Sequence record: DRR378314_1550
Reading direction: 5' to 3' (one strand)
DNA: 64,000 bases
The translations under genes and the position numbers were made by a program. Within the stretch, counting starts at the first letter, position 1. Each line of letters begins with the position of its first letter. The notes under the pieces are model-generated. The model was not told where the DNA came from. It saw only the letters and a program-made list of their open reading frames with translations, and ran no database searches. Positions 5,036 through 17,468 of the stretch are shown one piece after another.

Positions 5036-5575
5036 GTGGATAAAATCAGTTCATCACTCATCAACTTCTTTGCCTATGCGCCTGTGTGTTTTCTGGCGGT
5101 GTTGTGCTTGGGCTGTGGTGTGGCTGAAGCTCAGGAAAAAAGTTATTCAGATTGTGCCTACATAGAGTTCGACGACGTCGACCCCAGTACTCTCACTCTG
5201 CAAGAACGCATTGCGCTTGAAGAGGCCGCGCTGTTTGCCTCTTTAGATGACTCTGCCGAGTGTATGGAAGAGGCCACTGCGTCGGCTTCCGGCAGCCTTG
5301 CTGATGCTGCCAGCGGCAGCGGTTCTGGTGCTGCAGGTGGAGCTTCGGGCTCTGATGGCAGCTCGGGAAATAGCGGCGCAAACTCGAGTGAGCAGCAACA
5401 GCAATCTACATCTACGGCATCGGAAAGTTCGGTGGATACAAAAGATCATAAGCGTGGCAACAGCGGTGGCGGCAGTTCTGCCGTATGCGACGCAGTGAAA
5501 GAAGGCATGGCTTCGGCAACAACCGAAGCTGAAAAGGAACATTTTAAAGGCTTAATGGCCGAGTACGGATGTTAA
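5036..5575 (+). CDS. Secreted hypothetical protein with Gly/Ser-rich linker and Cys residues; first gene of the motor-like operon
   Basis: GTG start, signal-like N-terminus ending AEA, low-complexity middle, C-terminal helix ending YGC; 19 bp to the next gene. Confidence 0.7.
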   Translation: MDKISSSLINFFAYAPVCFLAVLCLGCGVAEAQEKSYSDCAYIEFDDVDPSTLTLQERIALEEAALFASLDDSAECMEEATASASGSLADAASGSGSGAAGGASGSDGSSGNSGANSSEQQQQSTSTASESSVDTKDHKRGNSGGGSSAVCDAVKEGMASATTEAEKEHFKGLMAEYGC

Positions 5576-5594
5576 TAATTAACGGAAGAAGAAC

Positions 5595-6878
5595 ATGAAT
5601 ACACTAGCTCAACTAAAAAAACTAAAACGATTTTCAGTCGTTATGACGCTTTCAGCAATGTTTACACTAGCAGGCTGTCAGTCAACCCAAACCAATGTTA
5701 CCAGCGTTGGGCCGAGCATGAATGGTCCGTCAGACTCTAAAGCCTTGGGTAAAAAAGAACGTAGCTACAGTTACAACTCTAATGTTTATCTTAATGTGGC
5801 TATTCCGGTGTTTGACCCGGGGTTGCCGAAAGACAGTTCCGGCAATATTGATGATGAAGCCATAGTTGAAGAAGACATTTGGCCACAGGTGCGTCGTTTA
5901 GAAGCGAACCGTTTTGCGGTAAATACCCGCGAAGCACTTTCTGATACTAAAGCCTTTGGTGCAGTGAATGTGACTCCCGATGCTAACGTCAGTGCTGATG
6001 TCTACGTATTGGGAAAAATTAATTACTCAGACACCGAAACCGTTGAAATTGGTGTTCGTGTTATGGACGCCAGCAACCAAATTTGGGGCGAGGAAGAGTT
6101 TGAGTATCAGGTAGGCGCAGGCTTTTACCGTGACGCGTTAAGAAAAGGTGAAAACCCATACGGTCCAATTTTTGAAAGCATTGCGGGTTATGTTTATGAC
6201 TTGCTAATTAAAAAATCTGAAGAAGAGAAGAAAACCATTCAGGCGGTTTCAGATATGCGCTATGCCGCAATGTACAGTCCTGAAGCCTTTGGTGGTTATC
6301 TGGGTGAGTCCAGTAGTATCTTTTCGAGCCGTTCAACTATTACGCTGAACGGCGCGCCGGCTGAATCGGACCCTATGTATCAGCGGGTTAATGTGATTAA
6401 AGCGAAAGACCAGCAGTTTGTTGACTCATTGCAGGACAGTTACGACACCTTCTATGCAACGACCCATGATGCATACCGTACTTATCAGGAAGAGACTCTG
6501 CCGGTTGCTATTGATATTCGACAGAAGAAAGCAGAGAGAACCCGCGCGCAGGTTGGTGCTGGTATTTTAGCTACGGCCGCTATTTTGCTGGGTAAAAATT
6601 CAGGCTCTACCGCTGGCCAGGTGGCTAGTGCGGCGGCAGGTTTAGGTGCGGTTTACAGCTTAAGCGAAGCAATAAAAACCAACCGTGAATTAGGCACTCA
6701 ACGTGCGCTGCTTGATGAAATGGGACAAAACCTGGACATAAAAGTAACTCCGCAGGTGGTAGAACTTAATGACCAGAACATTGAATTAACCGGTACCGCT
6801 GGTGAGCAATATGCGCAATTACGTGAAAAGCTGAAAGAGATTTATGATCTCGAATCAACGCCGTTAACTCAGCTTTAA
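5595..6878 (+). CDS. Lipoprotein of unknown function with a C-terminal Gly/Ala-rich hydrophobic hairpin
   Basis: Lipobox LAGC; GAGILATAAILLG...AAAGLGAVYSL segment. Confidence 0.8.
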   Translation: MNTLAQLKKLKRFSVVMTLSAMFTLAGCQSTQTNVTSVGPSMNGPSDSKALGKKERSYSYNSNVYLNVAIPVFDPGLPKDSSGNIDDEAIVEEDIWPQVRRLEANRFAVNTREALSDTKAFGAVNVTPDANVSADVYVLGKINYSDTETVEIGVRVMDASNQIWGEEEFEYQVGAGFYRDALRKGENPYGPIFESIAGYVYDLLIKKSEEEKKTIQAVSDMRYAAMYSPEAFGGYLGESSSIFSSRSTITLNGAPAESDPMYQRVNVIKAKDQQFVDSLQDSYDTFYATTHDAYRTYQEETLPVAIDIRQKKAERTRAQVGAGILATAAILLGKNSGSTAGQVASAAAGLGAVYSLSEAIKTNRELGTQRALLDEMGQNLDIKVTPQVVELNDQNIELTGTAGEQYAQLREKLKEIYDLESTPLTQL

Positions 6879-6899
6879 TTCACCTAAGGAAAGGTAACG

Positions 6900-8333
6900 A
6901 TGTCGTCTGTTGATCAGCAAATAGCAGAAAACCGTGCTAAAAAGAAAAAAGTCATAGTAACCGGTGTAATTGCCTCTGTTTTTGCCTGTTTGCTGATTGG
7001 CGTTGTCGTTACTTTGCTCGCTTATTTTCCGGTTTCGGGTAACACGCCGGTAGCCGCGGAAAAACAAGAGAAAAGCGAGCCGCAGATAAGTTCCGCTAAC
7101 CAGGCAATAGACAGAAAAGCGCTGCAAACGGCCTTAAATGACACCAATCAGCGCGTTTCTGAGCTTGTTGCTACCCCGTATATATCGACGTGGCAGCCCG
7201 CCAAAGTTGAAGATTTTCAGGCCGACATAGAGCAGGCTTTTAATGACTATGGCGGCAGTAATTACAGCCAGGCGCAAACTACTGTCGAGCAACTCAATAC
7301 GGATATTACAAGCTACCAAAGCGGGTTTGAAAAGGCTTATAAACAATTTTATGCAGACGCAGTAAAAGCCTTTGCTGCCGACGACATTGATGATGCCGCT
7401 CAGTTGAATGCTCAGGCGTTAAAGGTAAAAGGCGATTTTAGCGACGCGCTGGCGTTGCAGAAACGTATAGATACCTACCATGAAGTCGCTGATTTGTATG
7501 AACAGGCCAGAGTAGGCGGTGTAGAAGGCAATATAGAGAAGCAGCGTGCTGCTTATCAACAAATTCTAAAGCTTGATCCGCAACAGCAGGATGCCAAGGC
7601 AGCCTTAGCGAAAGTGGAACAGCAGATTAAACAACAACGTTTTGCCGGTGCTTTGGCAACGGCGGTGAATGCCATTGATAAAAAAGACTTTGATCGCGCC
7701 CAGGAGGCATTAACCAAAGCTTCGGCTATAGACAACAACCGGCCGGAACTGGCAACCCTGCAGGCGCAAATTGACGCTGAGTTAAAAAGTCAGGGTGTGA
7801 AGTCGTTAGAAAAACGCATTCAGGTCTTTGCCGGTGCCGACGAATGGCAGACGGTACAGATGCTGGCAGAAAAGGGTTTGGTCGATTATCCGGACAGCCG
7901 GGTTGTGCAGCAGGCTAAACAAAGCGCGGAAGAAATATTAGCCGCCAGCAGTGCGCTGGATGTTTATATTGAAAGACCGGGCCGGCTTGCTGACAACAAC
8001 ATTCGCCAAAATGCCGTGAATGCGGTGTCCAAATACAGTGGGCTCACGCAACTTAGCGCAAAGCTGGGTGAAAAAATAAGCCAGGTTGAGCTGCTCATTG
8101 AAAAGGAAAATCAGCCTATAGATGTGACCATTCGCTCCGACAACCGAACCTATATAAAAGTATTGGGCGTTGGTGTTGTGGGTGAGGTAAGAGAGAAAAC
8201 CATCCAGTTAAAGCCGGGTAAATATCAATTAGAAGGCCGCTGCGAAGGCTACCGCTCAACCATTGTCGATGTTGTGGTGGAGAAGTCGGGCACGCCAATT
8301 GTTATTAACGTTCAGTGTAACGAACGCGTTTAG
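6900..8333 (+). CDS. Bitopic protein: N-terminal TM anchor, TPR-like helical body, C-terminal PEGA-like beta domain
   Basis: RAKKKK + TM; Ala-rich helices (YQQILKLDPQQQDAKAAL); LKPGKYQLEGRCEGY with a Cys pair. Confidence 0.7.
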   Translation: MSSVDQQIAENRAKKKKVIVTGVIASVFACLLIGVVVTLLAYFPVSGNTPVAAEKQEKSEPQISSANQAIDRKALQTALNDTNQRVSELVATPYISTWQPAKVEDFQADIEQAFNDYGGSNYSQAQTTVEQLNTDITSYQSGFEKAYKQFYADAVKAFAADDIDDAAQLNAQALKVKGDFSDALALQKRIDTYHEVADLYEQARVGGVEGNIEKQRAAYQQILKLDPQQQDAKAALAKVEQQIKQQRFAGALATAVNAIDKKDFDRAQEALTKASAIDNNRPELATLQAQIDAELKSQGVKSLEKRIQVFAGADEWQTVQMLAEKGLVDYPDSRVVQQAKQSAEEILAASSALDVYIERPGRLADNNIRQNAVNAVSKYSGLTQLSAKLGEKISQVELLIEKENQPIDVTIRSDNRTYIKVLGVGVVGEVREKTIQLKPGKYQLEGRCEGYRSTIVDVVVEKSGTPIVINVQCNERV

Positions 8334-8375
8334 CATAATTTAGCGTAGAATAATAAAAAAAACAGGAGAGACTTC

Positions 8376-10358
8376 GTGGCCACACTTGACGAAGCCATTG
8401 AGAAAGGACGACGTAAACGACGGCTAATGGCTATTGGCTTCTCGGTCAGTATTCTTGCACTGCTGATTATTTACTTTGGCTGGTTGTTTCTAACCAAAGG
8501 CTACAGTTTTACCGTAAAGCCAACAGAAGCTGCGCAAACTCAGCGCTTTGCGGTTAATTCCGGTATTGGCTTTTTCATCGACAATAAATATTACGCGGTA
8601 GGCTCTGGTGGCCTCGTGGCGGTTTCGGCCGACAAGTACCAAACCAAAGAAGTGCAGGTAAACGACAACAGCCCTTCAACCATTGAAGTTGAGCTGGAGC
8701 CTAAACCGGCAAAAGTGACGATAACAACAGAGCCGGGCGCAAATGATATTGTCTGGTCAGTTAACGGTGAGCAGCGAGAAACCGCTGCTACCTTTGAGGA
8801 TGAATTTGCTCCCGGAACGTATACGATGTCGGCCTCGCATCCGGCTTACGAGCCTGCTTCAGTGGCAATTGAGGCGTTAATAGACGGTAAAGTTGAATAT
8901 CAACTTCGGTTAACGCCCATTAGTGGCGTTATTTCTATTAATTCCAGCCCGGCGGGCGCGTCGGTGACCCTTGACGGCAAAGAGGTTGGTTCAACGCCGG
9001 TAACCGTTGCTAAAGTGGGTGGCGACTACCCTGTGGTGGTGAATTATCCGGGGTATGAACCGGTAACGGACACCGTGTCTTTAACCGTGCGCAATAAAGA
9101 ACCTAAGCGTAATTATCGACTACAGCCAGTGCAGGCAACCGTTAATGTTTCGGTGAACCCGAAGGGCGGAGCGTTGCTGGTTAACGGCGCGCCGGCAAAA
9201 AATCCAATTAGCGTTGATGCCAATAAAGAACATGTTATTCGTTACGAAAAGGCCGGCTACATTAAGCAAAGCCGGACAATTAAGCTGGGTCCAGCCGAAA
9301 ACCAGCAGCTGACCTTTAACTTAGACCCGGAAATGGGTGACGTAGCTTTTACCGCCAACGAACCCAGCGACGTTTACATTAACGGACAAAAGCAGGGCGT
9401 AACGCCGCTTCGCACCACTTTGCAAGCTTTGCCTTCTAACGTTGAGTTTCGTAAAACCGGTTACCGTACGGTTAAGCAGGAGTTTCAGCCTAGCAGCGAG
9501 CGGCTGGTGAACGTAAAAGCCGAGATGCTGCGCGAGTTTGATGCCAGAAGAAAAGAAGGCAGACCGTTGTTTGTCAGTACTTTAGGCATTGAAATGAACC
9601 GTCTGTCGCCGAAAAAATTCACTATGGGCTCGCCGGTTAATGAGCCAAACCGCGGACGTAATGAGCATCAGGTGAAAGTGGATTTCTCACGGGACGTATG
9701 GATATCGCGCCATGAAATTACCGAGGCGCAGTTCGCCGCGTTTAAAGGCTCGGGTAGCAAAACCAAAATTCCGGTTACGAATGTGTCCTGGGATGAAGCG
9801 GCGTTATTTACCAACTGGCTGAGCGAACAGGAAGGTTTGCAGCCTTTTTATAAAGTCAGTAACGGTAAAGTGGTGGGAACCGATGCGAGCTCGCGAGGTT
9901 ACCGCTTGCCGACCGAAGCCGAATGGGAATACATTGCCAAAATTAATCGCAGAGCTGACTCTACTACTTACGTGTGGGGCAGCCAAGAACACCTGCGTGA
10001 CAAGCAGGGCAACTTTGCCGATGAGTCTGCAAAAGGTCAGCAAACTTTCATTTTACGCGGTTACAATGACGGTTTTGCCGGTAAAGCACCGGTAGGCAGT
10101 TTTAAAGCAGAGCGCGGCGGCTTTTTTGATTTGGACGGTAACGTCAAAGAGTGGGTGCACGACAGTTATACTTTGAACCCGCCCGATCTTGACCGGGTTT
10201 ACACCGATTACCTGGGCGCGGCTCGCGGCAATGGGAATGTGGTCAAAGGTGCGTCTTATAAAACCGGACGCATGAAGAATATTCGTGCCAGCGTTCGCGA
10301 CGGCGAAAGTGCTTCGGCAGAGGATATCGGCTTTAGAATAGCCCGGTATCATGAGTGA
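8376..10358 (+). CDS. Bitopic protein with multiple PEGA domains and a C-terminal FGE-sulfatase (SUMF1/PvdO/GldK-like) domain
   Basis: GGAG RBS + GTG; PEGA motifs (SSPAGASVTLDG...G-TP); FTMGS, HEIT, PVTNVSW, YRLPTEAEWEY, DLDGNVKEWV, IGFR. Confidence 0.9.
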   Translation: MATLDEAIEKGRRKRRLMAIGFSVSILALLIIYFGWLFLTKGYSFTVKPTEAAQTQRFAVNSGIGFFIDNKYYAVGSGGLVAVSADKYQTKEVQVNDNSPSTIEVELEPKPAKVTITTEPGANDIVWSVNGEQRETAATFEDEFAPGTYTMSASHPAYEPASVAIEALIDGKVEYQLRLTPISGVISINSSPAGASVTLDGKEVGSTPVTVAKVGGDYPVVVNYPGYEPVTDTVSLTVRNKEPKRNYRLQPVQATVNVSVNPKGGALLVNGAPAKNPISVDANKEHVIRYEKAGYIKQSRTIKLGPAENQQLTFNLDPEMGDVAFTANEPSDVYINGQKQGVTPLRTTLQALPSNVEFRKTGYRTVKQEFQPSSERLVNVKAEMLREFDARRKEGRPLFVSTLGIEMNRLSPKKFTMGSPVNEPNRGRNEHQVKVDFSRDVWISRHEITEAQFAAFKGSGSKTKIPVTNVSWDEAALFTNWLSEQEGLQPFYKVSNGKVVGTDASSRGYRLPTEAEWEYIAKINRRADSTTYVWGSQEHLRDKQGNFADESAKGQQTFILRGYNDGFAGKAPVGSFKAERGGFFDLDGNVKEWVHDSYTLNPPDLDRVYTDYLGAARGNGNVVKGASYKTGRMKNIRASVRDGESASAEDIGFRIARYHE

Positions 10359-10372
10359 TGAGGAGAAACATC

Positions 10373-10480
10373 ATGAAAAAACGCGTGATTTTGGGCGTCA
10401 TACTGCTGGCTTTGGCCGGCAGCGCGACGGCTTATTTTGTGTCTTTGGATGCACCACAAGATTTCCCCACCAACATTTAA
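10373..10480 (+). CDS. Small 35-aa signal-peptide/TM protein (MKKRVILGVILLALAGSATAYFVSLDAPQDFPTNI), absent from the ORF track
   Basis: Strong RBS GAGGAG 7 nt before the ATG; fills the operon gap between 10358 and 10496; basic N-terminus then hydrophobic core. Confidence 0.75.
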   Translation: MKKRVILGVILLALAGSATAYFVSLDAPQDFPTNI

Positions 10481-10495
10481 CGCCCGGAATGCATA

Positions 10496-11266
10496 ATGTC
10501 TAAAAATAATACGCTTTCAATGAGCCCGAACTTTTTTGTCAGTGGTGGTGTGCTACTGGCTATTTTTACCCTGATACATTTGCTGTATGCAGGAATTATT
10601 CGACCTGCAGCCGAAGTGGCAATGGCAGAGCAAGGAACAGAAGCTTTAACTGCATTTTCGGTTATCTTCAAAGATGTTGAACAGCAGGTGTGTATTTCGC
10701 TCATGTTGTTCTGCTTATTCCTGATGCTGTATAAGCTGTGGCGGTTAATTGACGAAGAAGAAATTTACTCCCGCGATTTGCTGGAAAGCTACGACAAATC
10801 TGAAGCGCTGGACGTTGATGCGGCATTAAATGATTTAGAAAGTTCGGCTTATAAAGAAACCCCCGCATACAGCACCTGGATCAACTGTATTCGTCGTTTT
10901 AAGAACACCAAAAACGTTCAGCATGCGGCTGACACCATCGAGTCGTCGGTAGACAATATTGCCATTCAGTTAGAAAGCGGAAACAACATGATCCGCTACA
11001 TTATCTGGGCTATTCCGTCTATTGGTTTCGTGGGTACGGTTCGCGGTATTGGCTCGGCGCTGGCGCAGGCTGACAAAGCACTGGATGGTGACATTGCGGG
11101 TATGACTGCATCGCTGGGTGTGGCTTTTAACTCAACGTTGGTTGCGCTGTTTATTTCTTTGATTCTGATGTTGTTTATGCACTTGCTGAACAGCCGTCAG
11201 GACAAGATGGTGATCCGCACGCAAGAGTCCTGTGAGAAACACTTGCTGTCTCATTTACACAGTTAA
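10496..11266 (+). CDS. MotA/TolQ/ExbB proton-channel family protein
   Basis: About 4 TM helices; IPSIGFVGTVRGI and SLGVAFNSTLVAL channel motifs. Confidence 0.9.
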   Translation: MSKNNTLSMSPNFFVSGGVLLAIFTLIHLLYAGIIRPAAEVAMAEQGTEALTAFSVIFKDVEQQVCISLMLFCLFLMLYKLWRLIDEEEIYSRDLLESYDKSEALDVDAALNDLESSAYKETPAYSTWINCIRRFKNTKNVQHAADTIESSVDNIAIQLESGNNMIRYIIWAIPSIGFVGTVRGIGSALAQADKALDGDIAGMTASLGVAFNSTLVALFISLILMLFMHLLNSRQDKMVIRTQESCEKHLLSHLHS

Positions 11267-11279
11267 TTGAGCGACTCAG

Positions 11280-12338
11280 ATGCGACGAACACGCCAGGCT
11301 GGCGACGGCTTTAATCTATCTTTTCTGGATGTCATGGCATGCGGACTGGGCGCCGTTATTCTTATTTTTATCCTGATAGATTTTAAAGCTTTTACGCCCG
11401 ACCCTTCAGAAGAGAAAGAAAAGCTTGAGCAGGAGCTGGCGGCATCAATGGACGAGCAGCAGCGTCTGAAAAAGTCCATTGACGAAATTAATGACAAAAT
11501 TGCGCTGGAGTCGGCTAAGCAGGAAGACTCTAAAGAAGCGAAAAACGACACCACTCAGGATCAAACCAAGGCTTTGCAGGACTTGTCGACTCAGTTGACC
11601 GTAGTCGCCGATTTGGAAAACCAGTTAGCGGCCTTGTCCAAAGAAGTTGAGAAGTCAGCCAACGTTGAGCTTTCGGGTACGGGTGAGCAGAACTTTATCA
11701 CCGGCATGAAAGTGGAAGGCGAACAAATAGGCATTCTGGTCGATAAAAGCGCCTCTATGATGGGCGATAACTTAATTGACGTGCTGAGCAAACTGGCTTT
11801 GAGCGACGGCAAAAAAGTGTCTACCGCTAAGTGGATAAGAACACGGCGGGTTGCTCAGTGGTTACTGGCAAGACTGCCGCAAACCTCAAAAGTTAGTGTG
11901 GTGACCTTTTCCGATACGGCAAACCGTTTAGGGCAACGGAACGTCAGCACTGCCTCGGTCAGCGGCTCTATGAATTCTATTGTGAAAGACTTAGGCGCGG
12001 TTGTGCCAGAGGGCGGAACTAACCTTCAGCTGGGCATTAGCACGTTATTTGAGACGAACCCGAATATTACCGATGTCTACATAGTAACGGATGGCCTGCC
12101 AACATTGGGAGACGGCCTGCCGCTTTCCTGTCGTAATTTTATTTCGACGAAAAAGTCTATTTCCTCAGACTGCCGTCAGGCATTGATGGTAGAGACCATC
12201 AAGCGCGCTCCTAAAGGTGTTCGTTACAATATTATACTGCTGCCGATAGAGGGTGACCCCTACGCTTCTCCGCTTTACTGGAACTGGTCGCGGGTAAGCG
12301 GCGGCACATTCTTATCGCCAGCTCCGGAGTGGCCATAA
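11280..12338 (+). CDS. ExbD/MotB-like TM (conserved Asp) + coiled coil + vWA domain protein
   Basis: FNLSFLDVMACGLG TM; MIDAS DKSAS, GGTNL, VTDG. Confidence 0.85.
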   Translation: MRRTRQAGDGFNLSFLDVMACGLGAVILIFILIDFKAFTPDPSEEKEKLEQELAASMDEQQRLKKSIDEINDKIALESAKQEDSKEAKNDTTQDQTKALQDLSTQLTVVADLENQLAALSKEVEKSANVELSGTGEQNFITGMKVEGEQIGILVDKSASMMGDNLIDVLSKLALSDGKKVSTAKWIRTRRVAQWLLARLPQTSKVSVVTFSDTANRLGQRNVSTASVSGSMNSIVKDLGAVVPEGGTNLQLGISTLFETNPNITDVYIVTDGLPTLGDGLPLSCRNFISTKKSISSDCRQALMVETIKRAPKGVRYNIILLPIEGDPYASPLYWNWSRVSGGTFLSPAPEWP

Positions 12339-13288
12339 TGAAAAAAATTCAGCGTGCGCCAGTAGAGGTTTTTAACCTGGCTTTTTTGGATATTATTTCC
12401 TGTGCCTTTGGTGCGGTTATTATGCTGGTGTTGTTGGCGAAAAACGGTACCGAGGATACCGAGCGTGGGCCCGCTAACCTCAGTACCTTAGTTGCAGAAG
12501 TATTGCAGGCGCAGCAGTCGGTGGAGGAATTAAAAGGGGCTTTGTCCGACAAACAGGATGAGCTTAAGGCCGCCGAGCAAAAGACCGCATCAGTCACTGA
12601 GCAGGAAAAGAATCTAGAAAGCTCTATTCCGCGGGCACAGAAAACCCTGCAACAATTGCAGGATAAAGCCTCGTCGTTAAGGGCTGAAATACGGCAAGCC
12701 ACTGCAATGCTAAACACGCCGAACAGCACAGACACACCTGATGATGATGTAGGTGGTATTCCAACCGACGCTGAGTACGTGGTGTTTGTTATTGATAATT
12801 CCGGGTCTATGTCGGGAGGCCGCGGCTGGAGCCGGGTTATTAGCGTTGTTAACGACATTATAGAAAGTCACCCAAAAATGAAGGGCTTTCAGATTATGGC
12901 CGCCGATGGTGATTTTATGTTTAGCAGTAAAGCGGGTGACTGGTTACCGGACAGTAAACGGTTCAGACAAATGGCCATGCAGCAAATGCCAAATTTTACC
13001 GGCGGTAAAAGTGCGCCTGAGCTGGGTATTCTGAAAGCCATTAACCTTTACAAAAAAACCAGGGGCACAACCAGCTTGTACGTTTTTGGTGACGATTATC
13101 GGGTAAATAATCTGGATGCGATAGTTAGGCAGATCACCAGTCAAAATCAGGGCGCGGACGGCAAGCCTGTAATGCGCATTCATGGTATCGGCTTTAGCCG
13201 CGCAAGTGGTAATGCAGAAACCTTCGCTGCCTTTATGCAGGCTGTTGCTAAACGCAACCGCGGCGCCTTTGTCGGGCTGAATTTTTAG
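12338..13288 (+). CDS. Second ExbD-like TM + coiled coil + vWA protein (paralogue)
   Basis: FNLAFLDIISCAFG TM; DNSGS and FGDD; TAATG coupling to the upstream gene. Confidence 0.85.
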   Translation: MKKIQRAPVEVFNLAFLDIISCAFGAVIMLVLLAKNGTEDTERGPANLSTLVAEVLQAQQSVEELKGALSDKQDELKAAEQKTASVTEQEKNLESSIPRAQKTLQQLQDKASSLRAEIRQATAMLNTPNSTDTPDDDVGGIPTDAEYVVFVIDNSGSMSGGRGWSRVISVVNDIIESHPKMKGFQIMAADGDFMFSSKAGDWLPDSKRFRQMAMQQMPNFTGGKSAPELGILKAINLYKKTRGTTSLYVFGDDYRVNNLDAIVRQITSQNQGADGKPVMRIHGIGFSRASGNAETFAAFMQAVAKRNRGAFVGLNF

Positions 13289-13326: not shown

Positions 13327-14946
13327 TTACACACGGAAGCGCTGAGTTAAACCGTTAAGGTTTTCAGCCAGCCGCGCCAGTTCAATACTGGCGGCGGAGG
13401 TTTCGTTGGCGCCGGACGCGTTCTCGCTGGCTATGTCGCTAATATTGACCAGGTTGCGGTCAACTTCTTTAGCGACACTCGCCTGCTCCTCAGCAGAGCT
13501 TGCTATGGTCACATTCTGATCACTGATGCGCGAAATAGCGTGCGTGATTTCCTGTAAGGCCTCGCCAGCTTCGTTAGCAATATCTACCGATTGTTTAGCT
13601 TGTTCATGGCTTTGTTGCATAGCTGACACTGTGGTGTCTGTTTCGCTTTGTACGGATTGAATCATGGTTTCAATTTCTTTCGTGGCTTGCTGAGTGCGGT
13701 GTGCCAGTGCCCTGACTTCGTCCGCAACCACGGCAAAGCCACGACCAGATTCCCCAGCGCGTGCGGCCTCAATGGCGGCATTCAATGCCAGCAAGTTAGT
13801 CTGGTCAGCAATGGCCCGGATAACATCTAAAACAGAGCCAATATTTTTTACCTGTCCGGCAAGGTTGTTCACTCCGGTCATAGTGCTGGCCAGCTTGGTC
13901 AGTAACGCGTTAACCGTTGCAATGGTTTGTTCAACCTGCCCACGACCTGCAATAGCACGTTCGCTTGCTTTCTCAGAATCGCCGGAGGTAGCTACCGCAT
14001 TGCGGGCTACATCTTCCACTGCCGCCGTTAACTCGGTTACGGCAGAAACCGCCTGCTCAAGCTCTTCGGTCTGGCGATGAATACCGCGCGTCGACTGTTC
14101 TGTTACTGTGCTCAGTTCTTCTGAAGTTGAAGCTAGCTGGTTCGAAGAGTCCTGAATTTCAGTTATGGTTTTCGAAAAAGCTTTAACTGTTGTATTGAAG
14201 TGGCGTGACAAGTTACCAATTTCATTATCGCTTAAATTGGTCAACTCTATGGTTAAATCGCCCTGAGATAGTTGGCTCATTGCGTTCTGTAGCACTGCTA
14301 TTTGGCTGTTTATAGTGCGGGTGATGTAAATCCCAATCGCAATAAGTAAAGCGATAATAGCGACCGTAATGGTACTGAGTATGGTTACTGAGTCGGAATA
14401 AGCGGTATTACCGTAGTTGCTGGCCTCATTTGCGTTGGCGGCTATTAGCTCTGCCATTTTTAGCAGCACATTTGAGTATTCGGTGTATGCTGTAAGGGAC
14501 TCGCCAACCAATAAAGTGCGAGCCTCTTCGTTACGGTTCTGACGGGATAGTTGTATTATTTCCTTATGAATATCCAGGTATTCTTCGTATTCGCGCACGA
14601 ATTCATCCGACAAACGCTTTAGAGTTTCGTTCTCAATTAAAGCTTGGGCGCGCTCAATGTTCTTGCGAGTTTCCTGCAGTAACGTGTCGAGTTTTTGTTC
14701 GACCTTTTTTTGGTCTGTATCATTCGTGCTGAGAATGTGCGTAGCTTCCTGAGCGCGAATATCGGCGGTCAGAGTATTAATGTGCTCGACAGTGGCGACT
14801 GACGGTAGCCATTGTTCGGAAATAATGGTCGACTGGTCATTAATGTATGACATGCGGGTAAAAGCGAAATACGCGATGACTAATAAACCCAGGCCAACAA
14901 ATGCATAGCTCAGGGCAATTAATAGACTCAGTTTTAAATTTTTCAT
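13327..14946 (-). CDS. Methyl-accepting chemotaxis protein (4HB-type sensor, HAMP, signalling domain)
   Basis: Two TMs, WLPS 4HB motif, [31 protein letters not shown]. Confidence 0.95.
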
Positions 14947-15011
14947 ATGGTTTCCTAATAAGGAAGTGGACTAAGGTTATGCTTTTTTGAATACAGTTTT
15001 AACATTAAATT

Positions 15012-15038
15012 AATGTAACCAAATGTAACTGAATGTAA
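15012..15038. promoter_or_regulatory. Three AATGTAA direct repeats at a 10-bp period upstream of the MCP gene; candidate OmpR-family site
   Basis: aatgtaacca aatgtaactg aatgtaa. Confidence 0.4.
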
Positions 15039-15293
15039 GTTTATTTAAAAAGTTGTTTTTTAGAACGTTTGTTATATATCATCGGCAATGAATCGCTCCG
15101 CTGCGAAGGAAAATTTTTAGTACGATATTGCAGTGGGGTGAAGTCTGAATCGGTGCTATATTTGTTTAAAATGCTGGCTGGATAGGTGCATTTTATGAAG
15201 GCTATCTATCGAATAAATAGAACGTTTTAGCAAGGAACCGAAAAATTGATTTCAGCCCCTGCTAAAAGTGTCTTACTGAGTAATCAGTGGTGC

Positions 15294-17468
15294 TTAACTT
15301 GCTCTTGCAGCATGCAGTTTTTTGTAGCTCTCTATTAAGCGCAAATGTCTGTCCAGGCCTTCAAGCTGCATATTGGTTGGCGTTAGACCGTGGAAGCGCG
15401 TAGTGCCTTTAACAGAGCCAATAACGGCTTCTATGGTCTCTTCGCCATACATACGGCCTAAGTTGTAGCGGTAGTCTTCCAGTTCCAGTTCTTCGTCCAG
15501 AGTAATTTCCAGTACCGCTTCAACAGCGCGATAAAACAACGTACGCTCAACCGTGTTGTCGTTGAATTGCAGGAACATTTCTACATATTCGAAAGCGTCG
15601 TCATGGCGTTGCAGCGCAAGGTAGATAAGCAATTTCAATTCAAGAATGGTGAGCTGACCCCAAACCGTGTTTTCGTCAAACTCAATACCAATCAGGGTGA
15701 TAATGTCCATGTAGTTATCAAGCTGACTGTCTTCCAGACGCTCAACTAAGTCTTCTAGCTGGCCATCGTTTAACTGGTGCAAATTGAGAATGTCTTCCCG
15801 GTATTGCAGAGCAATATTGGTGTTGTCCCAAATAAGGTCTTCCACGGGGTAAACTTCCGAATAGCCCGGCACCAGAATACGGCATACCGGCGCGGCTAAA
15901 TCTTCATGCACGGCTACGTAAGCTTCTTTGCCCATGTCCTGCAAAATACCAAATAGGGTGTCGGCTTCTTCCTGGTTAGAGCCGCTGAAGTCCCATTCAA
16001 CGAATTCAATGTCAGACTTAGCGCTAAAGAAACGCCAGGACACAACGCCCGATGAATCAATAAAGTGCTCAACAAAGTTATTTGGTTCGGTTACGGCCAT
16101 GGAATTAAAAGTTGGTGCCGGCAGGTCGTTCAAACCTTCAAAGCTGCGGCCTTGCAATAACTCGGTCAGGCTGCGCTCCAGTGCTACTTCAAAACTCGGG
16201 TGCGCACCAAAAGAAGCAAAAACACCACCGGTGCGTGGGTTCATTAAAGTAACACAGGCCACCGGGAACTGACCGCCAAGCGAAGCATCTTTAACTAACA
16301 CTGGGTAGCCTTGCTCTTCTAAGGCTTTTATTCCTTCCAGAATATTCGGGTACTTGTTAAGCACCTCTTGGGGTACGTCCGGTAGGGCAATTTCGTCTTC
16401 AATAATGTGCTTTTTAACGGCGCGTTCAAAAATTTCCGACAAGCACTGAACCTGAGCTTCGGGCAACGTATTCCCCGCACTCATGCCGTTACTTAAATAC
16501 AGGTTTTCAATTAAGTTCGACGGAAAATAGACCGTCTCGCCGTCGGAATGGCGCACAAACGGCAAGGACACAATGCCGCGGTCAGTGCGGCCTGAGTTAG
16601 TATCAATTAAGTGTGAACCACGCAGTTCGCCTTCCGGGTCGTAAAGCTCACGGCAGTATTCATCCAGAATTTCAGTTGGCAGCTCGTCATTTGCGCCGGG
16701 TTTAAACCATTTTTCGTTGGGGTAGTGCACAAACTCAGCGTTTGCTATTTCTTCACCAAAGTACTGGTCGTTATAGAAGAAATTACAGCTTAAGCGCTCA
16801 ATAAACTCACCCAGTGCGGAGCATAAAGCGCTTTCTTTGGTGGCGCCTTTGCCATTGGTAAAGCACATAGGAGAAGCGGCATCGCGAATATGCAGCGACC
16901 ACACATGCGGAACAATATTACGCCAGGAGGATATTTCTATCTTCATGCCTAAGTCCGCAAGTATGGCGGTCATATTGGCAATGGTTTGCTCCAGCGGTAA
17001 GTCTTTGCCTTCAATAAAGGTTCTGCTGTCGCTGTCAGGGCGTATGGTCAGTAACGCCTGAGCGTCCTGAGTAATGCTTTCAACGGCTTCGACGTCAAAC
17101 TCTAAATCGTTTTCTATAACGCGCTTAACGGCGCAACGCTCGGCTGCCCGAATAATGGCTTTGCGGTCTTTCTCGGAAATATCGGCCGGTAACTCAACCT
17201 GAATTTTAAACAGCTGCTTATAGCGGTCTTCGGGGTCGACAACGTTGTTTTGTGAAATACGGATATTTTCGGTTGGAATATCGCGTGTGTCGCAATAAAG
17301 TCGAATGAAATGTGCCGCGCACATAACCGAAGACGCCAGAAAGTAGTCAAAAGGGCCGGGGGCGGAGCCGTCGCCTTTGTATCGAATAGGCTGATCCGAA
17401 ATAACCGTGAAGTCATCGAATTTTGCCTCAAGGCGCATATTGTCGAGAAAGTTTACATTGATTTCCAT
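15294..17468 (-). CDS. ycaO: OsmC domain / YcaO domain fusion protein
   Basis: N-terminal OsmC (GDGSAPGPFDYFLAS..C, RCAV); YcaO motifs TNGKG, SALGEFIER, SNGMSAGN, EIFER, TELLQGR. Confidence 0.9.
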   Translation of the reverse strand: MEINVNFLDNMRLEAKFDDFTVISDQPIRYKGDGSAPGPFDYFLASSVMCAAHFIRLYCDTRDIPTENIRISQNNVVDPEDRYKQLFKIQVELPADISEKDRKAIIRAAERCAVKRVIENDLEFDVEAVESITQDAQALLTIRPDSDSRTFIEGKDLPLEQTIANMTAILADLGMKIEISSWRNIVPHVWSLHIRDAASPMCFTNGKGATKESALCSALGEFIERLSCNFFYNDQYFGEEIANAEFVHYPNEKWFKPGANDELPTEILDEYCRELYDPEGELRGSHLIDTNSGRTDRGIVSLPFVRHSDGETVYFPSNLIENLYLSNGMSAGNTLPEAQVQCLSEIFERAVKKHIIEDEIALPDVPQEVLNKYPNILEGIKALEEQGYPVLVKDASLGGQFPVACVTLMNPRTGGVFASFGAHPSFEVALERSLTELLQGRSFEGLNDLPAPTFNSMAVTEPNNFVEHFIDSSGVVSWRFFSAKSDIEFVEWDFSGSNQEEADTLFGILQDMGKEAYVAVHEDLAAPVCRILVPGYSEVYPVEDLIWDNTNIALQYREDILNLHQLNDGQLEDLVERLEDSQLDNYMDIITLIGIEFDENTVWGQLTILELKLLIYLALQRHDDAFEYVEMFLQFNDNTVERTLFYRAVEAVLEITLDEELELEDYRYNLGRMYGEETIEAVIGSVKGTTRFHGLTPTNMQLEGLDRHLRLIESYKKLHAARAS

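Follow-up and report, generated by a model that had tools for sequence, protein, structure and literature searches.

Two adjacent paralogous genes in the 64,000-nt stretch of DNA analyzed here (record DRR378314_1550; hereafter the window) encode vWA1 and vWA2, proteins that probably form the inner (B-position) pair of a TolQ/ExbB-type 5:2 motor driven by protons, replacing ExbD, TolR or MotB. In the mechanism that we propose, the short basic N-terminus of each vWA protein would be cytoplasmic, and both single transmembrane (TM) helices, each with its protonatable Asp, would be enclosed by a pentamer of TolQ-like g5 and face its two conserved Thr rings. Beyond each helix, some 80 residues of coiled coil (~12 nm) would carry a vWA head with a complete MIDAS in the periplasm, such that proton flow would rotate the pentamer relative to the vWA pair and the heads would pull on, or stay anchored to, a ligand held via the MIDAS metal. 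A single vWA1-vWA2 heterodimer is the most likely form of the inner pair, and the vWA heads most likely bind a protein from their own operon: the lipoprotein g2, g1 (which is small, acidic and exported) or the PEGA/FGE-like g4.

A vWA-headed motor family is already in print as a computational prediction, in which Williams-Jones et al. (2025, Mol Biol Evol, PMC12204202) describe 'TPH-vWA' proteins with a TolQ-like motor; section 8 and the legend to Fig. 4c-d of that paper present the same model, obtained from AF3 with Idiomarina as the seed or exemplar. The TPH-vWA proteins described there belong to the same family as the pair in the window, which shares its genus with the seed used in the paper, and they have in common with it a vWA domain tethered by one TM helix, an adjacent tolQ-like gene, the absence of tolR/exbD, a conserved Asp in a trans-pore helix and a heterologous pair, with no difference in kind between the two descriptions. 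The words PEGA, sulfatase, formylglycine and GldK are absent from the paper's main text, and the fixed linkage to lipoprotein, TPR and PEGA/FGE-like genes reported below therefore goes beyond that text. In the literature that we searched, no experiment on the complex, its ligand or a phenotype was found. An eLife paper of 2020 touching on PEGA, formylglycine and von Willebrand (PMC7159879) was considered and set aside, as its passages name neither MotA nor ExbB and give no account of this operon.

Gene organization and conservation of the operon

The pair closes a run of seven plus-strand genes. At its head, g1 (5036..5575) is an open reading frame for a small exported protein of 179 aa that has a hydrophobic, signal-like stretch at its N-terminus (residues 11-29), a body that is acidic and rich in Ser/Gly, and 7 Cys; BLAST detects it upstream of g2 in 47 of 79 related loci, and an ORF of ~190 aa, a candidate counterpart by position alone, takes its place in 20 more. 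The next gene, g2 (5595..6878), encodes a lipoprotein of 427 aa (lipobox LAGC, Cys28, Gln at +2) for which a Pfam scan returned no family and for which the nearest Atlas clusters are labelled 'Lipoprotein family protein', with no other naming. It is followed by g3 (6900..8333; 477 aa), which has one N-terminal TM helix (23-41) and weak TPR-like repeats whose Pfam matches all fall under the curated cut-offs, and by g4 (8376..10358; 660 aa), which combines an N-terminal TM helix (17-35), three PEGA stretches (PF08308, E 3e-32) and a C-terminal FGE-sulfatase-like domain of GldK/PorK-like type (PF03781, E 3.3e-33) and contains no Cys. The TolQ/ExbB-like channel (A) subunit g5 (10496..11266; 256 aa) stands directly before vWA1.

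The order g2-g7, with g2 and g3 each in place, is identical in 75/79 loci, and the four exceptions are cut by contig ends. Linkage of the pair to a TolQ-like gene is strict, with g5 directly upstream in this same order (75/79). No conserved genes were found outside the operon, the flanks of which vary among genera; its carriers include marine gammaproteobacteria such as Idiomarina, Alteromonas and Pseudoalteromonas.

Architecture of the two vWA proteins

The initial annotation had read both genes as paralogues in which basic residues and a TM motif precede a long coiled coil and a vWA domain, and this description was borne out. Both ORFs and their motifs are present (FNLSFLDVMACGLGAVI and DKSAS in vWA1, FNLAFLDIISCAFGAVI and DNSGS in vWA2), and the two proteins are paralogous both by BLASTP (25% identity over 158 aa, E 1e-10) and by profile-profile comparison of their N-terminal ~45 residues (E 1e-18). 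In vWA1 (g6; 11280..12338, plus strand; 352 aa) the basic N-terminus is followed by a TM helix at 15-35, a coiled coil at ~42-120 and a vWA domain at ~145-352. The same architecture recurs in vWA2 (g7; 12338..13288, plus strand), where the coiled coil, again of ~80 residues, spans ~49-128 and precedes the vWA domain; residues of vWA2 are given here in the 319-aa numbering, which counts from GTG 12329. We consider ATG 12338, which yields 316 aa, to be most likely the true start, correcting GTG 12329; its Met is kept in 76/79 orthologues. This ATG shares a single base with the vWA1 stop codon TAA, within a TAATG (12336..12340, plus strand) that points to translational coupling.

The vWA assignment is based on Pfam for both paralogues, with VWA_2 (PF13519) above its curated cut-off in each (E 2.8e-7 and 3.2e-7), and on a structural match for the vWA1 model. 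In this AF2 model, helices at 15-33 and 42-120 lead to a vWA domain with pLDDT >90, and the solved structures closest to it are vWA domains, those of CLCA1 (6pyx, E 6.3e-8) and BatB (3ibs, E 2.6e-7), with the Bacteroides fragilis aerotolerance-related protein 4jdu also among the best structural matches of the domain. All five MIDAS positions, part of which had been claimed from the DxSxS motifs, are complete and invariant in both paralogues. In vWA1 they are D155, S157, S159, T247 and D271 (80/80 orthologues), the first three lying in the DKSAS motif (aa 155-159; 11742..11756, plus strand) and occurring in 137-138 of the 138 rows of a diverse set. In vWA2 they are D156, S158 and S160, in the DNSGS motif (aa 156-160; 12794..12808, plus strand), together with S228 and D255, identified as the fourth and fifth positions from alignment position alone (79/79 orthologues). 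These sites may grip a protein.

The transmembrane segment and its aspartate

The aspartate that had been proposed as the ion-binding residue is conserved without exception. At the position of vWA1 Asp17 (codon 11328..11330, plus strand), the candidate proton-binding residue, and of vWA2 Asp21 (codon 12389..12391, plus strand; Asp18 from ATG 12338), 80/80 vWA1 and 79/79 vWA2 orthologues carry Asp. The diverse set, which comprises 137 representatives at 50% clustering plus the window, gives the same result, with Asp in 127/127 representatives having a residue at the vWA1 Asp17 position. The TM Cys claimed for both paralogues (vWA1 Cys21, vWA2 Cys25), one turn of the helix beyond the Asp, is likewise invariant. 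Net charge is higher before the TM segment than after it in 80/80 and 79/79 sequences, respectively, and because of this positive-inside bias the vWA heads are predicted to be periplasmic, in line with the initial annotation.

The suggested resemblance of the TM segments to ExbD is weak in vWA1 and not significant in vWA2. With hhalign, Asp17 of vWA1 aligned on the ExbD Asp over 17 columns in a weak match (E 3.2e-4, probability 39%), and vWA2 gave E 0.12 and a probability of 0.5% with the Asp register correct; for the TM helices of g3 and g4, used as controls, the alignment covered 1-3 columns. When residues 1-50 of either protein were searched against Pfam with E values of up to 10 allowed, no family appeared, PF02472 included, and PF02472 was also absent from the whole of vWA1 and vWA2; in the nearest genome this model picks up three genes. 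PDB profile searches with the vWA1 and vWA2 families returned no ExbD, TolR or MotB chain. An N-L-S/T-type motif precedes the TM Asp, as it does in ExbD/TolR of genome G001.

The TolQ-like channel subunit

The channel subunit g5 matches PF01618 (MotA_ExbB, E 8.9e-15) and consists of an extra N-terminal hydrophobic helix (aa 13-36) followed by a TolQ-like core (aa ~46-256). Its AF2 model (pLDDT 86.4) superimposed on TolQ (8vlw_B) in VIA-align with Z 15.1 and an rmsd of 3.3 A over 201 aligned residues (model 46-256), followed by ExbB (Z 13.6), ZorA (10.9) and MotA (about 9.7-10). By Foldseek nothing reached E <= 0.001, the best match again being TolQ (2.1e-3), and the sole match of a PDB profile search was MotA (6ysl, E 0.49). 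T181 and T214 of g5 are conserved in 80/80 sequences and line up with the Thr conserved in TolQ, ExbB and PomA from genome G001. Pfam and family models detected no ExbD/TolR/MotB-type or OmpA family in the six operon proteins covered, g2-g7. The earlier claim that the heads differ from peptidoglycan binders agrees with the lack of any ExbD-type or OmpA-type periplasmic domain in vWA1 and vWA2.

Proposed pairing of the vWA proteins and alternative readings

If vWA1 and vWA2 occupy the pore, they could do so as one mixed pair or as two separate homodimers, in which case a g5 pentamer would hold two copies of vWA1 or two of vWA2, giving two kinds of motor that differ in head and ligand. The known B subunits TolR, ExbD and MotB are homodimeric (for TolR, as stated in section 8 of PMC11761067), and each paralogue seems competent alone because Asp, Cys and a full MIDAS are kept in both. 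Both stalks run in one continuous heptad register, and the Asp-to-MIDAS spacing is nearly equal, at 137 or 138 residues in 67/79 loci for vWA1 versus 135 in 64/79 for vWA2, which indirectly favours a mixed pair. Stalk lengths are almost fixed and show no co-variation between loci (r = -0.36), which is compatible with homodimers. Nor do the g-e' charges set mixed and like pairs apart more than weakly: over 22 positions with 1-2 charged pairs, the net score is +0.71 for the mixed pair and -0.71 and -0.43 for the like pairs, a slight preference for the mixed pair that we regard as within noise. Several observations speak against homodimers. Both paralogues occur in 78/79 loci, the single exception ending at a contig edge, and neither has been lost in the complete loci (75/75); the duplication is ancient with both copies retained, vWA1 and vWA2 being reciprocally monophyletic in a tree of 32 pairs (SH-aLRT 100). 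The AF3 model as published in PMC12204202 also shows a mixed pair ('one per vWA monomer'), for which the AglQ-AglS heterodimer predicted inside AglR5, in the account of PMC11761067, provides a precedent. Moreover, in 70/78 related loci the stop of vWA1 and the start of vWA2 overlap, by 1 nt or by 4 nt, as if the two proteins were made in equal amounts. We regard two homodimeric motors as unlikely and favour the vWA1-vWA2 heterodimer as the more probable arrangement.

A different reading places the proteins outside the pore, as membrane-anchored vWA scaffolds of the BatA/BatB kind whose only tie to the TolQ-like protein is a common operon, with the Asp in a structural or other role. Like BatA and BatB, vWA1 and vWA2 are membrane-anchored bacterial vWA proteins with a MIDAS; the vWA domain counts BatB (3ibs) and 4jdu among its closest structural matches; Bat operons contain a TPR-like protein, as does the operon in the window; and no family model recognizes ExbD in the vWA TM segments. 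Yet an Asp kept in every one of the 127 diverse members is difficult to account for unless it acts within the membrane, and hhalign sets that of vWA1 in the ExbD register. The operon, moreover, encodes a MotA_ExbB protein with intact pore Thr and yet no ExbD/TolR/MotB partner for it, and, in a further departure from Bat systems, no MoxR-type ATPase is found among the six scanned proteins g2-g7. Bat proteins are not known to have a TolQ-like partner. We thus judge the scaffold reading quite improbable, and a Zorya-like defence against phages, built on ZorA/ZorB-type motor proteins, far more so. PADLOC did match ZorA to g5 (E 1.5e-4) and ZorB models to vWA1 (E 8.9e-4 and 4.1e-3), and ZorA is a structural match to g5 (Z 10.9), but these PADLOC matches are weak, as would be expected from any MotA/MotB-like pair, and g5, at only 256 aa, is without the long ZorA tail. 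No ZorB match to vWA2 stands among the 25 of 27 matches listed, and the remaining operon proteins have no significant PADLOC match (g3 has one at E 0.023). Given the weak PADLOC matches and the better fit of g5 to TolQ and ExbB (Z 13.6-15.1), the Zorya reading was rejected.

Comparison with known motors

The proposed vWA-headed pair in a TolQ-like pore can be set beside several characterized motors. Like that of ExbB-ExbD and of TolQ-TolR, this channel subunit has the TolQ/ExbB fold, the Pfam family and both pore Thr, and its putative vWA partners resemble ExbD and TolR in having one predicted N-in TM helix with an Asp. Unlike in those systems, a coiled coil and vWA domain replace the compact periplasmic domain, PF02472 is missing, two different partner genes are present, g5 carries its additional N-terminal hydrophobic helix, and no gene resembling TonB or TolA is recognized. 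MotA-MotB and PomA-PomB share the channel superfamily PF01618 and a MotB/PomB-type partner with a single Asp-bearing TM helix and periplasmic anchoring; however, MotA is a weaker structural match to g5 (Z about 9.7-10; hhalign E 0.025), and the vWA proteins have no OmpA-like peptidoglycan-binding domain of the MotB type. The GldL-GldM motor, which works with the GldK/GldN ring in type IX secretion and gliding, is alike in that its inner pair is a long periplasm-spanning protein, and the FGE-sulfatase-like g4 in the same operon recalls GldK/PorK. Against GldK (TIGR03525), however, g4 scores far under the cut-off (E 4.5e-20; 72 versus 350 bits) and is a TM-anchored protein with PEGA domains instead of a lipoprotein, and the GldM, GldN and GldL families have no match in g2-g7.

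In the AglR-AglQ-AglS gliding motor of Myxococcus xanthus, a single TolQ-like channel likewise has two distinct partners of TolR-like type, in a predicted heterodimer (PMC11761067, section 8), but AglQ and AglS bear small plug domains in contrast to the coiled coil and vWA head found here. The vWA adhesin of Myxococcus, CglB, is a distinct lipoprotein of the outer membrane, according to PMC9946355. An SHLS-type His is described in the text of PMC12204202; the g3 and g4 TM helices are without such a His, because neither contains any His.

A wider reading of the operon

We tentatively entertain, as a possibility that we hold to be rather doubtful, that the seven genes (5036-13288) together encode one self-contained proton-driven, envelope-spanning machine with a third way of transferring force across the periplasm. 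In such a machine, a vWA1-vWA2 heterodimer in the TolQ-like pore would present two different MIDAS sites, which would grip acidic residues of the outer-membrane lipoprotein g2 or of the small acidic g1. The TM-anchored PEGA/FGE-like g4 and the TPR protein g3 would dock outside the pentamer, replacing TolA/TonB, and the docking site would perhaps be the extra N-terminal helix of g5. If this were true, the machine would have a new job, which could be tethering of the outer membrane, handling of surface polymers or movement over surfaces.

Known motors of the 5:2 class power flagella, uptake that depends on TonB, upkeep of the envelope by Tol-Pal, gliding, type IX secretion and defence by Zorya, and one with integrin-like, metal-dependent heads on its inner pair would, if confirmed, represent a further type of output. 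The putative vWA-headed motor is encoded in a compact, portable operon, and it is open to experiment because culturable Idiomarina, Alteromonas and Pseudoalteromonas carry that operon.

The motor genes close a conserved six-gene block

Seven closely spaced ORFs lie on the plus strand of the window (5036–13288), the first of which, g1 (5036–5575), encodes a small exported protein. The domains of the proteins that follow were called with Pfam and NCBIfam and comprise a lipoprotein, g2 (5595–6878; lipobox LAGC with Gln at +2), two proteins with a single TM helix at the N-terminus, g3 (6900–8333), which has weak TPR-like repeats, and g4 (8376–10358), which has three PEGA domains and a domain of the FGE-sulfatase-like type, a channel protein of the MotA_ExbB family, g5 (10496–11266; E 8.9e-15), and the two vWA-headed proteins vWA1 (11280–12338; 352 aa) and vWA2 (listed as 12329–13288). 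The TAA stop codon of vWA1 (12336–12338) overlaps an ATG at 12338 (TAATG), and the Met encoded there is kept in 76 of 79 vWA2 orthologues; the start of vWA2 is therefore most likely this ATG, giving 316 aa, and the listed GTG at 12329 is probably wrong. We retain the 319-aa numbering for vWA2 residues.

To compare this arrangement across genomes we searched for loci with an alignment of vWA1 relatives; 572 of 600 candidate stretches were confirmed and the best 80 kept, 79 of them distinct; counts of 80/80 and 79/79 below refer to these loci with the window added. The order and strand of g2 to vWA2 are identical in 75 of the 79 loci, and each of the four exceptions (L033, L054, L058 and L074) is cut by a contig end. 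Identity within the set falls to 35–38%, and its members include Arenicellales and MAGs labelled Alphaproteobacteria, Nitrosomonadaceae and Rhodobacterales, with the nearest named loci in Idiomarina (94–98% identity). The block is thus fixed, with the motor genes (channel, vWA1 and vWA2, in that order) at its end, preceded by those for the lipoprotein, the TPR protein and the PEGA/FGE-like protein. A small exported protein of the g1 type precedes the block in 47/79 loci by BLAST, and 20 further loci carry an unassigned ORF of ~190 aa in its place. Comparison of the flanks of related loci revealed no gene outside the block that is conserved across genera. The downstream pair on the minus strand (13327–17468), encoding proteins of 539 and 724 aa, lies outside it, and the 724-aa gene recurs only in six close loci. 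By eye, the 539-aa protein resembles a methyl-accepting chemotaxis protein.

Linkage of g2 to the motor genes is as strict as that of the vWA genes, and the lipoprotein, for which no Pfam family was found, is a candidate outer-membrane partner. A Gly/Ala-rich hydrophobic stretch is present near aa 318–360 of g2. True formylglycine-generating enzymes employ Cys-based chemistry, which is not possible in g4 because this protein contains no Cys at all, and a catalytic role of this type is therefore unlikely. The best NCBIfam match of g4 is GldK/PorK (72 bits against a cut-off of 350), proteins that are thought to be binding modules, and g4 is more likely to be a binding module as well. PEGA is listed among 'peptidoglycan-associating effector domains', and a C-type lectin fold is given for the FGE-type domain, in PMC7159879.

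A TolQ-like channel protein

The AF2 model of g5 (32 sequences; mean pLDDT 86.4, pTM 0.79) superimposes with VIA-align on A. baumannii TolQ at Z 15.1 (rmsd 3.3 Å over 201 residues; model 46–256 on chain 8–222), followed by E. coli TolQ (14.9), ExbB (13.6), ZorA (10.9) and MotA (~9.7–10). Helical bundles can reach Z ~13 by arrangement alone and the two TolQ scores exceed this value by little, so we weighed them together with the Pfam MotA_ExbB match; Foldseek alone gave a best E of 2.1e-3. Thr181 (G-T-V-R-G-I-G) and Thr214 (N-S-T) are invariant (80/80) and align with conserved Thr residues in TolQ, ExbB and PomA of G001, the comparison genome closest to the window; these residues are what is known as the pore threonines. 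Residues 1–45 fall outside the TolQ match and contain a hydrophobic helix (aa 13–36; 10532–10603), an extra N-terminal TM helix that gives g5 four hydrophobic segments, as in MotA. The TM helices of g3 or g4 may dock here.

Architecture of vWA1 and vWA2

The initial annotation described vWA1 and vWA2 as paralogues, and this relationship was borne out by BLASTP (25% identity over 158 aa, E 1e-10) and by a profile–profile comparison of their N-terminal ~45 residues (E 1e-18); all of the sequence motifs it quoted are present. The TM Asp is invariant, as Asp17 of vWA1 (80/80) and Asp21 of vWA2 (79/79). We also aligned a diverse vWA1-type set, for which 149 of the 150 listed representatives were taken (one 193-aa fragment was omitted) and those of 320 aa or longer, 137 in number, were combined with the window. 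Across these 138 rows the TM position is Asp in 127 and a gap in 11, all of the latter being N-terminally short gene calls. Four residues, or one helical turn, past the Asp is a Cys (Cys21 of vWA1, codon 11340–11342; Cys25 of vWA2, codon 12401–12403; both plus strand) that is likewise invariant (80/80 and 79/79) and is retained in 132 of the 137 diverse rows with a residue there, whereas none of 30 aligned ExbD/TolR proteins has a Cys at the matching position.

Net charge is higher before the TM helix than after it in every sequence (80/80 and 79/79), with a mean of 3.6 (vWA1) and 3.3 (vWA2) Lys+Arg in the 15 or fewer residues before the helix and 1.4 after it, which predicts an N-in, C-out topology and hence periplasmic vWA domains. 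The vWA1 model consists of a single helix (42–120) followed by a vWA domain, mostly at pLDDT >90, whose best solved matches are likewise vWA domains, those of CLCA1 (E 6.3e-8), BatB (E 2.6e-7), the calcium-channel alpha2-delta subunit and TFIIH p44. Hydrophobic periodicity gives a continuous heptad register of ~70 residues in vWA1 and ~80 in vWA2, corresponding at 0.15 nm per residue to a putative coiled-coil stalk of ~12 nm. Between the TM Asp and the first Asp of the MIDAS, 67/79 vWA1 proteins have a spacing of 137 or 138 residues and 64/79 vWA2 proteins one of 135. Both MIDAS motifs are complete, with five invariant positions each (Asp155, Ser157, Ser159, Thr247 and Asp271 in vWA1, 80/80; Asp156, Ser158, Ser160, Ser228 and Asp255 in vWA2, 79/79), and in the diverse set these are kept in 137–138 of 138 rows, the Thr position being Thr in 129 and Ser in 8. 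A Cys284–Cys298 pair in vWA1 (codons 12129–12131 and 12171–12173, plus strand), invariant in the close set and present in about half of the diverse set, may form a periplasmic disulfide, and the C-terminal Trp351-Pro352 (12330–12335, plus strand; 80/80) may be a docking motif.

Relation to ExbD and pairing of the paralogues

The proposal that the pair are ExbD-like stator subunits was examined against 30 ExbD/TolR proteins from 31 loci in sampled gammaproteobacterial genomes, with the G040 locus left out. With hhalign, vWA1 residues 4–20 matched ExbD 7–24 weakly with both Asp residues in register (E 3.2e-4, probability 39%); the same register in vWA2 was not significant (E 0.12, probability 0.5%), and the control TM helices of g3 and g4 aligned over only 1–3 columns (E 0.11 and 0.54). 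Weak matches of vWA1 to the MotB-like ZorB models of PADLOC were also found (E 8.9e-4 and 4.1e-3). Pfam searches with the first 50 residues of either protein identified no family, and PDB profile searches with either vWA family matched no ExbD, TolR or MotB chain. Homology of the TM segment to ExbD is thus only weakly indicated, and by sequence neither protein is a PF02472 member. No match to the ExbD, TolR, MotB or OmpA families was found in g2 to vWA2 with Pfam and NCBIfam; G001 (2.8 Mb; 58% of sampled words common to the window) carries three ordinary ExbD-family genes outside this operon and seven MotA_ExbB genes, among which the g5-type counterpart is the weakest match. We propose, from the invariance of the TM Asp together with topology and gene context, that vWA1 and vWA2 act in the ExbD position.

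A vWA1–vWA2 heterodimer is a candidate pairing with points on both sides. In its favor, both vWA genes are present wherever the contig extends far enough (79 loci), and the vWA1 stop and vWA2 start overlap by 1 or 4 nt in 70/78 loci. A tree was built from 32 pairs, those of the window and of 31 of the 79 loci selected for their spread; in it the paralogues form the two clean sides of one branch (SH-aLRT 100), and the closest relatives of the window are the same five loci in nearly the same order on either side. Stalk lengths, however, do not co-vary between the paralogues (r = −0.36), a result that we count as neutral or against. Charge pairs at g–e', counted over 22 positions, come to +0.71 when the mixed pair is set in register and to −0.71 and −0.43 for the like pairs; with only one or two charged pairs in each, the difference is too small to favor either arrangement. 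The predicted mixed pair in AglR5-AglQ-AglS provides a precedent (PMC11761067).

Published predictions and distribution

Exactly this vWA1/vWA2 family is described by Williams-Jones et al. (Mol Biol Evol 2025; PMC12204202), where TMH-tethered vWA proteins are reported to co-occur tightly with tolQ homologues and without tolR/exbD; the motor reading is already published as a prediction. According to that paper, no deletion phenotype has been reported for the first of its vWA families, and the words PEGA, sulfatase, formylglycine and GldK are absent from its main text. A full-text literature search found no further paper on the TMH-tethered vWA family and no experiment. The observation made in the initial annotation is confirmed and its interpretation largely right, with the heterodimer as a candidate part of it and a MIDAS-bound protein ligand as a putative one; our additions to the published prediction include that the motor genes close a fixed six-gene block (75/79 loci) and that g4 lacks Cys.

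Searches with vWA1 retrieved 1878 relatives at E ≤ 1e-3 from a word-indexed protein collection, annotated at source solely as "VWA domain-containing protein", and an exhaustive search of 50%-identity representatives gave 860 at E ≤ 1e-3, of which 190 reach E ≤ 1e-30. Of 401 sampled genomes of the phylum, 19 carry a vWA1 orthologue (E ≤ 1e-25), each with a single match (11/329 high-quality genomes; 8/212 genera), a distribution that marks the system as patchy and accessory. One relative, P0044 (603 aa; 75% identical over 74% of vWA1), has two vWA Pfam matches and may be a fused or misread vWA1–vWA2 gene call.
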